Of a stretch of DNA of 64,000 nt, positions 980 through 26,750 are shown in pieces (within the stretch, counting starts at the first letter, position 1; each line of letters starts with the position of its first letter). The notes below the pieces were generated by a model. That model was not told the origin of the DNA. It did not search any database and saw only the letters and a program-made list of their open reading frames with translations. The translations under genes and the position numbers were made by a program. This DNA comes from a phage: the sequence record PV467749.1; one strand, written 5' to 3'.

Positions 980-1400
980 GTATTACTCTTTTACTTTGGC
1001 GGTACTCATCCTTTGCTTCTCTCACTGACATGATACGAACCAGATTGGCACTACCACAATAGTACTGAACCTGACTACGACCAATGTCAACATGATTATC
1101 AGGAACTTCATATACTGATACAGCAAACCCTGCACGATGTAATTTACCCAAGTCCATAGTAAAGAACTTAAACAAATCATTCAAACTCTGACAGCCAAAT
1201 GCCCAGCCACGTTTGATTGAATAGATTCCATCTTCAGTTGGTTCTGGTTGGAATTGCGAAGGCGTGGTCATGCACAAACGGTCAAATCCATTTTTAGTAC
1301 TGTATCGTGAAGAGTACCGTGCGAACGGACCTACTGTTTTTGCTGGATCTAAGTTAGGTTCAATATAACTGAATTTAAGTTCAAAACGATATACGTACAT
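960..1400 (-). CDS. hypothetical protein
   Basis: 146-aa ORF. Confidence 0.5.
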   Translation of the reverse strand: MYVYRFELKFSYIEPNLDPAKTVGPFARYSSRYSTKNGFDRLCMTTPSQFQPEPTEDGIYSIKRGWAFGCQSLNDLFKFFTMDLGKLHRAGFAVSVYEVPDNHVDIGRSQVQYYCGSANLVRIMSVREAKDEYRQSKRVIHEAVYG

Positions 1401-1433
1401 AATTAAAATCCCCAGTATTTGATGAAATAATTA

Positions 1434-1462
1434 TAACAAAAAAGGCTGACCGAAGTCAACCT
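1434..1462 (-). terminator. rho-independent terminator (hairpin GGTTGAC-TTCG-GTCAGCC + T-run on minus strand)
   Basis: Perfect 7-bp stem with UUCG-type tetraloop followed by T-run; identical hairpin recurs at 9568..9585. Confidence 0.6.
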
Positions 1463-1677
1463 TTATTTTGAAGTTCTTGAACTAATTGTCGTACTTCTTT
1501 GATGTTATGACACTGCTTTACAGTGAAGTAATCATACTTACGACCATAGGTTCTTGGGTCATCACCTTCCATATACTGCTGCACATCAAAGATTTGTAAG
1601 TAGGGATGCTGCATAACACGAATGTTATCACATTGGTAAATCAACATATGTTTAGTCCTCATATTTACACAAGCCAC
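1456..1677 (-). CDS. hypothetical protein
   Basis: 73-aa ORF; stop codon lies inside terminator stem. Confidence 0.4.
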   Translation of the reverse strand: MACVNMRTKHMLIYQCDNIRVMQHPYLQIFDVQQYMEGDDPRTYGRKYDYFTVKQCHNIKEVRQLVQELQNKG

Positions 1678-2002
1678 CGAATGTTGCCTGTTTTGCTGCC
1701 TTACGCATCATCACAAGTTTAACATACTGTTCACCATTACTTTCTTCATATACATCAACTTGAAGAAATGCAAGCATATTGGGATCAGTATCATTCGAGT
1801 ACTGCGTAAAACTAATGTCACCTACAGTATGTTCTTTAACAAAATTATACACTTCACCATCGATATAAACGATAGTATGGTCATCGCTATCACCTTGGTA
1901 AATGTGTTTAATATCACCTTCAGTACAGACTAGTCCAGGTAATGGTTCTGCATAAGACATACCACATATAATCATACAAACAAAAAACAAAATTACTTTC
2001 AT
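1652..2002 (-). CDS. secreted protein (signal peptide)
   Basis: Hydrophobic N-terminus MKVILFFVCMIICGMSYA then polar domain. Confidence 0.5.
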   Translation of the reverse strand: MKVILFFVCMIICGMSYAEPLPGLVCTEGDIKHIYQGDSDDHTIVYIDGEVYNFVKEHTVGDISFTQYSNDTDPNMLAFLQVDVYEESNGEQYVKLVMMRKAAKQATFGGLCKYED

Positions 2003-2382
2003 GATTTGTTTCCTTTGGATAAAATGGATTTCTTCACTTTGTACTGCTTGTAGTTATTATACCAAACATCGATTACATAAATCAAGTACCAAAGTGATGG
2101 ATATAATGATAGACCAATAAAAACTGAAAAAATACTTGTATTAATAAAACCAATACAGTGCAGTGTAAATGCAACGATTAGAATACCAATCGTAATCATA
2201 CTAGCTGAATATGGTACACTATCAGATGCGAACCATGAATCAACCTTACTAATTAAAGTATACTTCCCAGTACTAACAGCATAAACAATTGCTACTATAC
2301 CAAATAATGCCATTGAAATAGTTATTACTGAGTTAATAAGAATCGGAGTAATTAATACATAAAGCATTACATCGTTTATCAT
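1999..2382 (-). CDS. integral membrane protein
   Basis: 127 aa, multiple hydrophobic segments. Confidence 0.5.
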   Translation of the reverse strand: MINDVMLYVLITPILINSVITISMALFGIVAIVYAVSTGKYTLISKVDSWFASDSVPYSASMITIGILIVAFTLHCIGFINTSIFSVFIGLSLYPSLWYLIYVIDVWYNNYKQYKVKKSILSKGNKS

Positions 2383-2392
2383 TTGTTATACC

Positions 2393-2788
2393 TTAAAGTT
2401 CACAATGAATATTCAATTTATCAATATCCTGATCTCGTTTGTTCGACGAATCTTGATAAATGACTATGTAAATATCCCCATCCTTTGTCTTGGGGTCCAC
2501 TATCAATATTACATTTGCTATTATACCAGCATCTGATTTATATGTCGATACCTTTTTATTCCCAATCAAACTCTCGGCCCTGAAACGGTAAACCTCATTA
2601 TCTACGACAATATTGTTTCCATTTTGTGGGTCATTAGAAAGTACATGCCATGTTCCATCGTTTCCCATACAATCAAGGTAAGCAGGTACGGCTGTACTGA
2701 ACCTTGAATAAAGCATGAATACTACAAACACCATTATCATTCTTATATATTTTTTCATTATAACCTCTAACGAGCAATACTTCTGCAC
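2393..2788 (-). CDS. secreted or membrane-anchored protein
   Basis: N-terminal hydrophobic segment MIMVFVVFMLY. Confidence 0.5.
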   Translation of the reverse strand: MQKYCSLEVIMKKYIRMIMVFVVFMLYSRFSTAVPAYLDCMGNDGTWHVLSNDPQNGNNIVVDNEVYRFRAESLIGNKKVSTYKSDAGIIANVILIVDPKTKDGDIYIVIYQDSSNKRDQDIDKLNIHCEL

Positions 2789-2836
2789 ATATTATTTGTA
2801 CAGAAGTATTTAATACTATTAGAGACTTTTTGAACG

Positions 2837-3163
2837 TTACTTCTTACTAGTTAGTTTATCTTTCAAGATATCAAACCAAATGGAAACTTTACCAGCAAAC
2901 AATGCATTAGTAAACCACACAATACCAACAATATTCTCAACTAAATTCATAATTGAAACAAATGGTCCAATTGGTAATACAAAACTTACTAACCATGACA
3001 GTACTGAAATAAGTACTACAACGAAGAAGATTCGTGCAATGGGTGAGTCTAACATAAACAACTCACGAAACTCATCACGCTCGGTTTCGTCTTTAATGAA
3101 GAATTCGAAAACCATAACCCATAAAAGAATTAGAGCAGGAATTGAAATTAGAACTGATAACAT
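2837..3163 (-). CDS. membrane protein
   Basis: 108 aa with several hydrophobic helices. Confidence 0.45.
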   Translation of the reverse strand: MLSVLISIPALILLWVMVFEFFIKDETERDEFRELFMLDSPIARIFFVVVLISVLSWLVSFVLPIGPFVSIMNLVENIVGIVWFTNALFAGKVSIWFDILKDKLTSKK

Positions 3164-3221
3164 GTTTTATATCCTCAAGTTTAAGTATTAAGTTTCAGAC
3201 TACAAGAACCATTATACAGTA

Positions 3222-3464
3222 CTACAAACGTTTGTCAACAGGTTTTTCTTCAATAAGCATAAGATAACTGAAGACGAATAGTAATACAGATGCCATATCA
3301 ATAACCGTAAAGCTCACGGGAATGATAATAGACACTAGAACGAGTGCCACGTTTAGCAAGAATACAGTAGTGATATCCACCAGCTTTCGTTTAGTGGCTA
3401 CTGCTACTAGTGTAGGGTAGAACATAAACAATAATGCAACTACAAAACTCAATACTAGATACAT
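3222..3464 (-). CDS. small membrane protein
   Basis: 80 aa, two hydrophobic helices. Confidence 0.45.
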   Translation of the reverse strand: MYLVLSFVVALLFMFYPTLVAVATKRKLVDITTVFLLNVALVLVSIIIPVSFTVIDMASVLLFVFSYLMLIEEKPVDKRL

Positions 3465-4117
3465 TTCTTTTTCACCTTAAGAAAATTATAACATAAAACA
3501 ACCTCAACATCTGGCTCATCATACAAGTACTCAAAGCGTTCTTTACTACGCTTAGTACCGATGTACTCACCATTCTTATGCCAACGCCACCCACCACTCT
3601 CTGGTTGGTCAGACTTCAGTACTGGATGATAGCACATGACAATTTCTTCTGGACCTTCAATAAGGTTCTTGTACTTCGTCAAAATCTGTTCAAGCGTATC
3701 TGCTACACCATAAGACGGGTGCATAAGATAAGACTCAGGGCGTGGACGACCACTTGGTAGAATGTCATCAGTACTATTAAAGATAGCACGGAAGTCTTCT
3801 GACGTGTATAAACTTCCATCTTCATGGATCATTGGATACTCATCTACTACATCATAATCAGTGAAGTGTTCAATCGCATGTCCTGGTCTGTAACCTGCGA
3901 GGATACCTGTATGTTTCGTCTGTACAATAGTCATAACAGATGTACTATTGTTTACATTAGGATCATGAATTTCAGCCCAAAAAGGATGATGAGGATCAAA
4001 TTTAGCATTAACTAAAGTACAATCACCAATGTAGTCGAAATTAGTTTCTTTAAAGTTCAAAGAAACACCACGCAATGCCCAATCAGGAGAAGTGATGAAA
4101 TTAAGATTAACTAACAT
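3455..4117 (-). CDS. hypothetical protein
   Basis: 220-aa ORF. Confidence 0.55.
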   Translation of the reverse strand: MLVNLNFITSPDWALRGVSLNFKETNFDYIGDCTLVNAKFDPHHPFWAEIHDPNVNNSTSVMTIVQTKHTGILAGYRPGHAIEHFTDYDVVDEYPMIHEDGSLYTSEDFRAIFNSTDDILPSGRPRPESYLMHPSYGVADTLEQILTKYKNLIEGPEEIVMCYHPVLKSDQPESGGWRWHKNGEYIGTKRSKERFEYLYDEPDVEVVLCYNFLKVKKKCI

Positions 4118-21840: not shown

Positions 21841-22248
21841 TTATTTACGATTCCTTGCGGAGTTCTTGTTCCTTGCTCTGAATGTTGGTGTCATCGAATG
21901 ACAATTAGGGCAAAGGATTTTTAAATTTGGTAGGTCATTATTTGTAGCATCACCATCAATGTGCTCAACTTCTGTCAGTACTGCACCATCTATTGGATGA
22001 CGTTTATCCCATCCACACTCTTCACATGCAGTTCCGCGTGTTTCATGTAGATATCTTCTCACAAATGGACATAACTGTATAGTAATACCTTTATATCCTG
22101 GATGTTCACCGTTAAGCCATTTATCAACTTTCTGTTGATATTGTAGCTCTTGTTGACATGCAACACTACAATATTTTGTTTGACCCTTTCGAACCAATTC
22201 AATTTTACAACATGCACAATAACGTTTTTCTTTCATATAGTTCTCCAT
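21841..22248 (-). CDS. HNH endonuclease
   Basis: CxxC...CxxC zinc pairs and EVEHIDGDATNNDLPNLKILCPNCH; start set at Met21 because the longer ORF overlaps tRNA-Thr. Confidence 0.6.
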   Translation of the reverse strand: MENYMKEKRYCACCKIELVRKGQTKYCSVACQQELQYQQKVDKWLNGEHPGYKGITIQLCPFVRRYLHETRGTACEECGWDKRHPIDGAVLTEVEHIDGDATNNDLPNLKILCPNCHSMTPTFRARNKNSARNRK

Positions 22249-22301
22249 ATAGTATGGAGTATTTATTTTCAAGAAAAATGTTATTTCTAAGAATATATTT
22301 G

Positions 22302-22372
22302 TGGTCAATATTAGAATCGAACTAATGACTCAGACTTACAAGATCCGTGTTATACCATTTAACTAATCAACC
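22302..22372 (-). tRNA. tRNA-Thr (anticodon TGT)
   Basis: Hand-folded cloverleaf: acceptor GGTTGAT/ATTGACC, D-stem GTTA/TAAC, anticodon stem CGGAT/GTCTG with loop CTTGTAA, T-arm ATTAG-TTCGATT-CTAAT. Confidence 0.65.
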
Positions 22373-24052: not shown

Positions 24053-24080
24053 TTTAATTTCCTATTGTAATTTCGTTTTG

Positions 24081-24153
24081 CGACTCTGGAGGAACTCGAA
24101 TCCCCAACCAATTAATTAACAGTTAATCGCACCACCTATTGTGCTACAGAGTC
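24081..24153 (-). tRNA. tRNA-Asn (anticodon GTT)
   Basis: Acceptor GACTCTG/CAGAGTC, D-stem GCAC/GTGC, anticodon stem ATTAA/TTAAT with loop CTGTTAA, T-arm GGGGA-TTCGAGT-TCCTC. Confidence 0.7.
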
Positions 24154-24161
24154 ATAATTAT

Positions 24162-24368
24162 TTATAAGCCATGTCTTTTCAAAAATCTAGCAAACACATT
24201 TTTGGAAGCACCATAACTTTCATATATACTAACTTTTTTCTCACCATTATTCAAACGTTTTTTGATATCTTCTATGTTATCTTCTAAACGTTTTACGTTT
24301 GCAAATTTCTTAGATGGTATATTATTTTTGGTTCTATAATTCAGTACTGAACCTGAACTAATATTCAT
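24162..24368 (-). CDS. small putative DNA-binding protein
   Basis: 68 aa; C-terminal KVSIYESYGASKNVFARFLKR resembles homing-endonuclease-associated HTH (NUMOD-like), unverified. Confidence 0.35.
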   Translation of the reverse strand: MNISSGSVLNYRTKNNIPSKKFANVKRLEDNIEDIKKRLNNGEKKVSIYESYGASKNVFARFLKRHGL

Positions 24369-24389
24369 TATTTTATTTCAAAGTTTGTG

Positions 24390-24694
24390 AGCCATCTGTG
24401 AGTCGAACACAGTACCTAACGATTCGTATAATCTATAGTTTTCACTATAGTACGGACTATATCATCATCCCATAGGGATGCCGGACGCTAATGATGTATT
24501 ACACAGTAAGATCGTACTGTACCATCTAGTCTCTGCACCTTCCCAATACGCTTATTGGGCTTGGCTCAGGATTGTCATCACCATTACGTGTTAAGATTTC
24601 CCTGAATTCATCCAGTTTTTCAATCACCATTACTGATGAAAGTCACCATTGTCGATGAGTCGTTTGCTCTAACCACCGTGAGCTAATGGCCCGA
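24390..24694 (-). tRNA. tRNA-Met/Ile (anticodon CAT) interrupted by group I intron
   Basis: 5' exon 24657..24694 (GGGCCAT TA GCTC..GAGC A AACGA CTCAT) and 3' exon 24390..24426 (AA TCGTT AGGTA CTGTG-TTCGACT-CACAG ATGGCTC A) join into a 75-nt cloverleaf. Confidence 0.7.
24427..24656 (-). other. group I intron (IC3-like) in tRNA anticodon loop
   Basis: Insertion after anticodon U36, last intron nt G; contains GAAGGTGCAGAGACTAGATGGTAC, near-identical to the P7/J8-7 core of known tRNA group I introns as I recall it. Confidence 0.65.
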
Positions 24695-24699
24695 TTTAG

Positions 24700-24938
<239 letters not shown>

Positions 24939-24961
24939 ATTAATTATATCAGTACTTAATC

Positions 24962-25339
<378 letters not shown>

Positions 25340-26649: not shown

Positions 26650-26750
<101 letters not shown>

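Follow-up and report, generated by a model that had tools for sequence, protein, structure and literature searches.

Described group I introns of bacterial transfer RNA (tRNA) genes include those at the classical Ile2.5Ug site, and the 4 classical bacterial types all belong to subgroup IC3 (Williams, bioRxiv 10.1101/2020.01.27.920355), with IA-type introns having been reported in tRNA-Ile2 genes of Pseudomonadota (PMC13011429). Group I introns are also known in the T-loops of transfer-messenger RNA (tmRNA) genes (PMC11915505). As for phages, a 2014 review found all introns known at that time in protein-coding genes, despite the many tRNA genes of phages, and summarized collaborative homing, which pairs an intron devoid of an open reading frame (ORF) with a free-standing endonuclease (PMC3984707); free-standing endonucleases occur in phage tRNA clusters, T4 SegB being one example (PMC13096335). 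Our search of the open-access literature and bioRxiv (subscription journals lay outside it), which covered Asteriusvirus, RaK2, Atu_ph07, huge phages and crAss-like phages, did not turn up introns in phage tRNA genes in any subsequent publication. Here, we describe a split tRNA(CAU) gene in a 64,000-nucleotide (nt) stretch of phage DNA (record PV467749.1; the whole stretch analyzed is referred to as the window), which comes from an Asteriusvirus-type Escherichia coli jumbo phage. On its minus strand, at 24692..24388, 2 tRNA halves are separated by 230 nt. We put at about 0.85 the probability that this insertion is a group I intron devoid of an ORF and lying between U36 and A37 of an Asteriusvirus tRNA(CAU), most likely tRNA-Ile2, which would be spliced and modified by TilS.

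A tRNA(CAU) gene split in the anticodon loop

The 5' exon comprises the 5' strand of the acceptor stem (GGGCCAU), the D arm, the anticodon-stem strand AACGA and the loop nucleotides CUCAU down to U36. The 3' exon continues with AA, UCGUU, the variable loop, the T arm (CUGUG-UUCGACU-CACAG), the 3' acceptor strand AUGGCUC and the discriminator A, and is followed by CAA (ACAA including the discriminator), so that CCA is not encoded in the window allele. When the exons are joined in silico, ARAGORN recognizes a clean 75-nt tRNA with anticodon CAT and a cloverleaf in which the acceptor, D, anticodon and T arms are all present, including a 7-bp acceptor stem with G1-C72 and G2.U71 and a 5-bp anticodon stem (AACGA/UCGUU) closing the loop CUCAUAA. 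The intron begins with CGACAA and ends with UAUACG, its last base being the omega G (G230) at 24425. The first-pass annotation of this DNA had placed the exons at 24657..24694 and 24390..24426; their lengths (38 and 37 nt) were right, but both positions are 2 nt off, and exons cut at 24694..24657 and 24426..24390 yield a 73-nt tRNA with anticodon CCG and a poorer cloverleaf in ARAGORN. With the exons shifted accordingly, the canonical 75-nt cloverleaf with anticodon CAT that it had described is borne out, as is the 230-nt insertion after U36 ending in G (24654..24425).

The split gene was missed by standard ARAGORN and by the Rfam tRNA model, both applied to the unspliced window. Intron-enabled ARAGORN reported a single split tRNA in the 64-kb window, at this locus and with a 230-nt intron, under the label 'tRNA-Arg(acg) i(36,230)', which we reject as an artefact: the anticodon was mislabelled because the boundary slid.

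Related phages carry both intron-plus and intron-minus alleles. The best match to the window is E. coli phage TH47 (97.9% identical over 1 kb), which, like E. coli phage Turkey5, has the split tRNA(CAU) gene, with an identical 5' exon and an intron that is 100% (TH47) or 99% (Turkey5) identical. In E. coli phage WPEC5, the gene is uninterrupted, the part corresponding to the 5' exon being 97% identical, and the empty site reads ...CGACTCAT^AATCGTT... (the caret marks the insertion site); this exact junction fixes both splice sites independently of any folding. The gene is likewise uninterrupted in ELP-22 and several other E. coli phages, where it has a different anticodon stem (GCCCC/GGGGU) and adjoins tRNA-Asn. 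Among Klebsiella phages, Muenster and 3 others carry an intron about 92% identical to that of the window, their tRNA(CAU) differing in its acceptor stem. In OU509535, the tRNA(CAU) body that houses this intron is of a third, quite distinct kind, and the first P1 pair shows a compensatory switch (C1-G8 replaced by G1-C7). Thus, one intron resides in 3 different tRNA(CAU) bodies. The full-length intron is present in 7 records of the GenBank phage collection, in none of which is a feature annotated over it. Such sporadic occurrence among related phages is what one would expect if the element were mobile or had been acquired recently.

The assignment of the insertion to group I rests on several lines of evidence. 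The Rfam Intron_gpI model (RF00028), proposed as a check in the first-pass annotation, matched far above its gathering score (99.1 versus 50 bits, E=1.9e-24), the only such match in the window, and scored 95-104 bits in 3 related phages. We rejected the 5' boundary of this match (24747), which takes in a spurious upstream P1/P2 and treats the 5' exon as an insertion, and is thus an artefact; the tRNA fold together with the empty-site allele served to set the boundaries instead. The P1-P9 structure was drawn by hand (intron position 1 = 24654) and assessed on an alignment of 18 homologues, namely the window, 2 Klebsiella phages and 15 relatives from IMG/VR. Without manual input, RNAalifold predicted P2, P3, P4, P5, P6, P6a, P7.1, P8 and P9 from this alignment, with compensatory changes in 24 of 42 pairs. 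In the hand-drawn structure, 89.2% of the cells were paired, compared to 35-44% in controls slid by 1-3 columns, 39 pairs had changed on both sides (16-19 in the controls) and the covariation score was 0.397 (about 0.09 in the controls); in 500 shuffles, neither the pairing nor the covariation value was ever attained. Minimum free energy (MFE) folding of the single sequence (z = -2.2) recovered P2, P3, P4, P5a, P6, P6a, P8 and P9.

The helices of the catalytic core, P3, P4, P6, P7 and P8, are paired in 95-100% of cells across the 18 homologues, P4 being 100% paired. All 6 pairs of P7 (G122 and 124-128 with 196-201) are invariant in 18/18 sequences, and P7 is predicted to be the guanosine-binding helix, forming a pseudoknot with P3. 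Furthermore, 89 alignment columns show conservation of at least 90% in the 15 relatives of non-tRNA type, and the window intron conforms to 88 of them. Three compensatory pairs were found in P5/P5a. P7.1 is 100% paired, with 2 of its 4 pairs compensatory, and P7.1a, in which gaps in the alignment keep the share of paired cells down to 61%, shows compensation in 5 of 6 pairs. At the 5' splice site, P1 contains the wobble U36 (24655). G9 (24646); U.G occupies the corresponding alignment columns 8/18 in 14 of the 18 sequences, though P1 is aligned imperfectly, and RNAfold of the local segment reproduced the P1 hairpin in 5 members of the tRNA(CAU) type. No endonuclease ORF was found in the 230-nt intron, the longest internal ORF being 34 amino acids (aa). 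Collectively, the Rfam match, covariation in every peripheral helix, the P1 U.G, the terminal G and the intron-less alleles uphold the earlier proposal of a group I intron in the anticodon loop. The motif on which that proposal had leaned, GAAGGTGCAGAGACTAGATGGTAC, is indeed present, at intron positions 112-135, but is not P7/J8-7 as labelled: it consists of the P6 3' strand, J6/7, the P7 5' strand and the start of P7.1.

Table. Coordinates of the split tRNA(CAU) gene, the structural elements of its intron and the neighbouring features in the window.
Feature	Coordinates	Strand	Basis or remarks
5' exon of tRNA(CAU), nucleotides 1-36 (standard numbering), 38 nt	24655..24692	-	ARAGORN on spliced sequence
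Group I intron, 230 nt; C1 = 24654, terminal omega G230 = 24425	24425..24654	-	Rfam RF00028, covariation
3' exon of tRNA(CAU), nucleotides 37-73, 37 nt	24388..24424	-	read from sequence, ARAGORN
P1: exon UCAU (24658..24655) and intron C1 G2 with U7 G8 G9 U10 G11 A12 (24648..24643), loop ACAA	24643..24658	-	sequence reading
P2 hairpin UCAUCA-GUAA-UGGUGA, intron 16-31, GNRA tetraloop	24624..24639	-	6/6 pairs compensatory, 89.8% paired
P3 5' strand CUGGAUG, intron 40-46, partner 24487..24481	24609..24615	-	95.2% paired, 3/7 pairs compensatory
P4 (50-55/84-89) enclosing P5 (59-62/77-80) and P5a (65-67/74-76)	24566..24605	-	covariation, MFE fold
P6 (90-92/116-118) and P6a (96-102/107-113)	24537..24565	-	P6 invariant; P6a 5/7 pairs compensatory
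P7 5' strand G-(A)-GACUA, intron 122-128, bulged A123, partner UAGUCC 24459..24454	24527..24533	-	6 invariant pairs
P7.1 (129-132/159-162) and P7.1a (135-140/147-152), between P7 and P3 3' strand	24493..24526	-	covariation
P3 3' strand CGUCCGG, intron 168-174	24481..24487	-	covariation alignment
P8 hairpin CAUCCC-UAU-GGGAUG, intron 175-189	24466..24480	-	98.1% paired, 3 compensatory pairs
P7 3' strand UAGUCC, intron 196-201, preceded by J8/7 AUGAUA	24454..24459	-	invariant
P9 hairpin CUAUAGU-GAAA-ACUAUAG, intron 205-222, GNRA tetraloop	24433..24450	-	compensated variation at every pair
Remnant (68 codons) of a gene for a free-standing HNH homing endonuclease	24162..24368	-	equivalent to the C-terminal third (residues 167-234) of the TH47 protein
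tRNA-Asn(GUU), downstream neighbour	24080..24153	-	ARAGORN, Rfam
tRNA-Ser(GCU), upstream neighbour, same-strand cluster	24847..24936	-	ARAGORN, Rfam
Promoter-like site TGGACA-17-TATAAT upstream of tRNA-Ser(GCU)	24943..24971	-	11/12, TG extension
Second ORF of HNH type (155 aa), adjoining tRNA-Thr(UGU) on its downstream side	21841..22308	-	motif EVEHIDGDATNNDLPNLKILCPNCH

Identity of the tRNA and a proposed splicing pathway

Anticodon CAT is compatible with tRNA-Met and with tRNA-Ile2. A BLAST search of 5426 complete E. coli genomes with the spliced tRNA matched a tRNA-Ile gene in every genome, and this gene was the best match in every sampled row. The matched E. coli tRNA-Ile has anticodon CAT (GGCCCCTTAGCTCAGTGGTTAGAGCAGGCGACTCATAATCGCTTGG...), i.e., it is tRNA-Ile2 of the ileX/ileY type. 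The 13-nt core of the anticodon arm, CGACUCAUAAUCG, is identical in the window tRNA and E. coli Ile2, and both contain C4-G69 and C5-G68, pairs which we take to be determinants for TilS. Furthermore, the Muenster homologue is identical to E. coli Ile2 at 69/82 positions and has the same acceptor stem, GGCCCCU. Given these matches, the shared core and base pairs and the Muenster acceptor stem, the split gene most likely encodes tRNA-Ile2 (ileX type) rather than tRNA-Met. An initiator tRNA is ruled out, because the molecule has G1-C72 and its weak anticodon stem lacks a run of 3 G-C pairs. In the long ORFs of the window (35% GC), AUA accounts for 10.7 per 1000 codons and 14.5% of the isoleucine codons, roughly twice the frequency in E. 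coli; thus, a phage-supplied AUA decoder would make sense.

Intron-less homologues of the window tRNA were located in 4 of the phage sequences compared (L001 1809-1887, L005 1809-1884, L007 1404-1481 and L198 798-874). They are named tRNA-Met in the GenBank records of ELP-22, WPEC5 and CBB and by ARAGORN in RaK2, and are more likely tRNA-Ile2, judging from their similarity to E. coli ileX.

We infer that the spliced tRNA is produced from the precursor by the standard 2-step group I reaction. The anticodon stem AACGA/UCGUU would keep both exons together, with P1 (UCAU^CG with UGGUGA) stacking on it and offering U36.G9 to the P3-P9 core. Free guanosine bound in P7 would then attack the 5' splice site, after which the terminal G230 would occupy the guanosine site and the 3'-OH of U36 would attack the 3' splice site, ligating the exons into the loop CUCAUAA. 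Completion of the tRNA would involve RNase P, 3' trimming and the CCA-adding enzyme, the latter being needed because CCA is not encoded. Finally, host TilS would be expected to convert C34 to lysidine, whereupon the tRNA-Ile2 would read AUA.

Cultured jumbo phages of E. coli and Klebsiella carry a tRNA intron, and neither intron nor tRNA is annotated in any of the 7 GenBank records. In practice, the gene escapes standard tRNA finders, so that a CAU-anticodon tRNA, probably decoding AUA, seems to be absent from a phage that probably makes it.

Neighbouring HNH genes, mobility and competing explanations

In TH47 and Turkey5, an intact gene for a 234-aa HNH protein begins 19 nt past the 3' exon. 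Residues 1-149 of the TH47 protein match PHROG 14913 (HNH; E=2.6e-56), and Pfam yielded only a sub-threshold match to the GerE helix-turn-helix for this endonuclease. In the window counterpart, 498 bp located between two direct repeats of 11 nt, AAAATAATGAA, have been deleted in frame, with loss of the whole nuclease domain; the HNH gene beside the window intron is thus already inactivated. Homologues of the TH47 protein are encoded directly 3' of intron-less tRNA(CAU) genes in RaK2, K64-1, CBB and Yen9-04, so that HNH genes of this family lie beside tRNA(CAU) in 4 jumbo-phage genera, Asteriusvirus, Alcyoneusvirus (RaK2), Mimasvirus (CBB) and Eneladusvirus (Yen9-04). Our reading is that this HNH family targets the tRNA(CAU) neighbourhood. 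More generally, the tRNA cluster is crowded with homing-endonuclease genes: besides the second HNH-type ORF of the window, different HNH genes are present in the clusters of OU509535, WPEC3, WPEC5 and Muenster. In Yersinia phage fHe-Yen9-04 (L199), an unannotated tRNA(CAU)-like gene, GGCCCTTTACAC...CTCATAAGAG...GGGCCACCA, is located at about 805-882, 18 nt upstream of the HNH gene g417; it is not called by ARAGORN because its D arm is aberrant.

As only a lead, the sigma-70-like site upstream of tRNA-Ser(GCU) could drive a unit composed of the Ser, Ile2 (with its intron) and Asn tRNA genes and the HNH remnant; promoter-like sites are no more numerous in this region than in shuffles, and the promoter and terminator scan was overall at chance level. 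Elsewhere in the window, a tRNA-like sequence at 26672-26750 (minus strand), directly after tRNA-Ser(UGA), scored 29.3 bits, exactly the Rfam threshold. It has good acceptor and T arms and degenerate D and anticodon arms, its Turkey5 counterpart (L002 507-585) scores 33.3 bits, and it could represent a pseudo-tRNA or else a tRNA of unusual form.

The intron encodes no endonuclease of its own. It probably spreads by recombination in mixed infections, aided by double-strand breaks introduced by HNH endonucleases in the tRNA cluster; the ORF-less intron, located a few dozen nt away, could be co-converted during break repair. The distribution of the 2 elements is as follows: intron and TH47-type HNH gene are both present in TH47 and Turkey5 and both absent from ELP-22 and WPEC5; Muenster and OU509535 (the latter with a different HNH gene) have the intron without a TH47-type HNH gene; and RaK2, K64-1, CBB and Yen9-04 have the HNH gene without the intron. 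Alleles with and without the intron, and with an intact, deleted or absent HNH gene, provide a ready-made natural series for testing how an ORF-less intron spreads.

Several observations weigh against the reading given at the outset. The window allele has G2.U71 and no CCA, whereas the intron-less alleles of WPEC5 and ELP-22 have G2-C71 and CCA, and the wobble together with the missing CCA could represent early decay. No convincing P10 pairing of the 3' exon with the guide sequence was found by eye. The window tRNA is just modestly closer to E. coli Ile2 (59/79 positions identical) than to elongator Met (54/80; 39/79 for fMet). Last, the intron and the HNH gene are not obligatorily linked, since all 4 combinations exist. 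The first of these points would fit a decaying relic, in which either splicing of the intron or function of the tRNA has been lost and which is kept as neutral in a 350-kb genome; the deletion in the adjacent HNH gene and the lack of the intron in most relatives agree with such a scenario. We nevertheless consider it very unlikely: the intron is 100% identical to that of TH47 and matches the conserved core at all columns but one, every helix is intact, the U.G and terminal G are in place, and identical exon sequence has been maintained in 3 phages. Moreover, functional phage tRNAs often have G.U pairs and lack CCA, and E. coli possesses a CCA-adding enzyme. That there is no real intron at all, the match being due to chance or to an artefact of assembly, is practically inconceivable in view of the Rfam E-value, the same structure in 7 independent GenBank phage genomes, the extensive compensatory changes and the exact empty site. 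If the tRNA were instead an elongator tRNA-Met reading AUG, the intron and its splicing would be as described; the labels given to the intron-less homologues by GenBank annotators and ARAGORN, along with the small difference between the 2 identity values, speak for this possibility. We regard it as unlikely, because those labels depend on the anticodon alone, and the consistent best match to a CAT-anticodon tRNA-Ile in E. coli, the shared anticodon-arm core, the C4-G69 and C5-G68 pairs and the Ile2 acceptor stem of Muenster all argue for tRNA-Ile2.

A further alternative concerns mobility rather than the tRNA-Ile2 intron itself. The HNH protein and the intron might form a collaborative (trans) homing pair, in which the endonuclease cuts intron-less tRNA(CAU) at or near the insertion site, the intron protects its carrier and both elements are copied. 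The location of the HNH gene immediately 3' of tRNA(CAU) in 4 jumbo-phage genera, TH47 and Turkey5 included, is consistent with this model, as is the direct junction of tRNA(CAU) and tRNA-Asn in phages devoid of both elements, and there is a precedent in collaborative homing as such (PMC3984707). The pairing is doubtful all the same: the 2 elements are not co-inherited but occur in all 4 combinations, RaK2, beside an HNH gene of its own, has kept this 13-nt core of the anticodon arm free of any interruption, and the window HNH lacks a nuclease domain. The strict form of collaborative homing, with the intron site being the cleavage site, is possible but unsupported.

Relatives of the intron and comparison with described systems

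The first-pass annotation had called intron-containing tRNA genes rare in phages, which agrees with the literature (PMC3984707) but not with viral contigs. When IMG/VR was scanned with the core motif of group I introns, AAGGTGNAGAGACTAG, over 120 loci were retrieved (e.g., L009-L128), and ARAGORN found an intron-split tRNA at 51 of 127 motif sites, 4 of the 51 being cultured-phage copies of the window intron. Leu(UAA) predominates, and the other types seen are Lys, Thr, Arg, Tyr, Gln, Ser, Phe and Met. With about 50 candidates in viral contigs, intron-split phage tRNAs are probably overlooked rather than rare. Example loci are L036, L050, L067, L021 and L090, on putatively viral contigs; in the 490,380-bp contig IMGVR_UViG_2974583807_000001 (L086), tRNA-Leu(UAA) is split by a 278-nt intron according to ARAGORN, and a region of Agrobacterium phage Atu_ph07 that matches the tRNA-Leu(UAA) intron query (MF403008 112929-113178) is annotated as 'hypothetical protein'. 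The intron type is well known in bacterial tRNA genes, and the less expected part, its phage tRNA carrier, is apparently unreported. A bolder proposition, that group I introns widely inhabit phage tRNA genes without having been noticed and that this intron is mobilized in trans by the HNH endonucleases flanking tRNA(CAU) while shielding its carrier's tRNA-Ile2 gene from cleavage in mixed infections, strikes us as distinctly unlikely; if true, it would mean that collaborative homing acts on a tRNA gene and that tRNA repertoires of jumbo phages are systematically under-annotated.

Subgroup assignment depends on the segment between P7 and the P3 3' strand. In IC3-type introns of tRNA-Leu, -Thr and -Arg from the same motif scan, GACUA leads directly into GACGG, with no P7.1. 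By contrast, a 34-nt covarying hairpin (intron 129-162) separates P7 from the P3 3' strand in the window intron and its relatives, the outer stem of P7.1 being GAUG/CAUC, GGUG/CACC, GGCG/CGCC or GUGG/CCAC in different members. We therefore rejected subgroup IC3, in which P7 runs straight to the P3 3' strand. The extra P7.1/P7.1a helices are the hallmark of subgroup IA, close relatives are found in phage terminase, psbA and Kayvirus genes, and the intron, judged from helix layout, belongs with the IA-type lineage. Consequently, the likeness to small bacterial tRNA introns put forward earlier holds for the universal core and fails elsewhere, P7.1/P7.1a being absent from IC3; it is explained by the motif, which covers the universally conserved P6 3' strand, J6/7 and P7 5' strand.

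The relatives extend beyond tRNA(CAU). Terminase large-subunit genes are interrupted in Vibrio phage R16F and at L035 and L016. In Vibrio phage vB_VpaM_R16F (L197), this gene, at 1019-3509, is annotated as 5 coding-sequence fragments, with at least 1 gap holding an intron 80% identical to that of the window and the other gaps probably being introns too, and L035 contains 3 Intron_gpI matches within about 1.5 kb. Relatives of the tmRNA type were found on contigs classed as viral (L048 and L025, also L116, L077, L044, L099, L118 and L017); in-silico splicing gave tmRNAs with tag peptides in ARAGORN for 2 of the 5 tried, L048 and L025, and the Rfam tmRNA model did not match the unspliced relatives. 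Such tmRNAs could be phage-borne or could represent prophage ends integrated at ssrA. For the intron group of L034, L038 and L065, the host gene was not found, only short open frames flanking the intron.

Comparison with described systems places the window intron between bacterial tRNA introns and phage introns. Its position after U36 and the likeness of its carrier to tRNA-Ile2 identify the insertion point as the classical 'Ile2.5Ug' site. With the proteobacterial tRNA-Ile(CAU) introns at this site (Azoarcus type), it has in common an Ile2-like host gene, insertion after the fifth loop nucleotide, U.G at -1, a terminal G, small size, no ORF and a P1 formed with UCAU of the anticodon loop; yet the classical introns are IC3 and reside in bacterial chromosomes, whereas the window intron has P7.1/P7.1a (IA-like) and resides in a virulent jumbo phage. 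Closer counterparts occupy this site in bacterial tRNA(CAU) genes, namely those of Alteromonadaceae Bs31 and 2 gammaproteobacterial metagenome-assembled genomes (L189, L158 and L195). These are 77-80% identical over most of the intron and share P7.1 and the exon context CCGACUCAU^AAUCGG, but their hosts are bacterial, and P1, P2, P8 and P9 differ through compensated changes; they fit the IA-type tRNA-Ile2 introns of Pseudomonadota (PMC13011429).

The tmRNA introns are 70-75% identical and have the core and P7.1 in common with the window intron, but interrupt a T-loop, that of the tRNA-like domain, instead of an anticodon loop and use a different internal guide sequence. Introns of phage protein genes (the terminase of Vibrio phage R16F, psbA of Synechococcus phage S-CBWM1 and those of Staphylococcus Kayvirus) have the same IA-type core, with identity of up to 80% for the Vibrio phage terminase, but interrupt coding genes. 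One IA-type lineage thus links phage tRNA, bacterial tRNA-Ile2, tmRNA and phage terminase genes, and since it spans phage and bacterial genes, phages may carry tRNA introns between bacteria. Finally, the locus resembles collaborative homing and free-standing endonucleases such as T4 SegB in that an intron lacking an ORF directly adjoins a free-standing HNH gene within a cluster of tRNA genes, the differences being that co-occurrence of the 2 elements is not obligatory here and that the endonuclease is truncated in the window.

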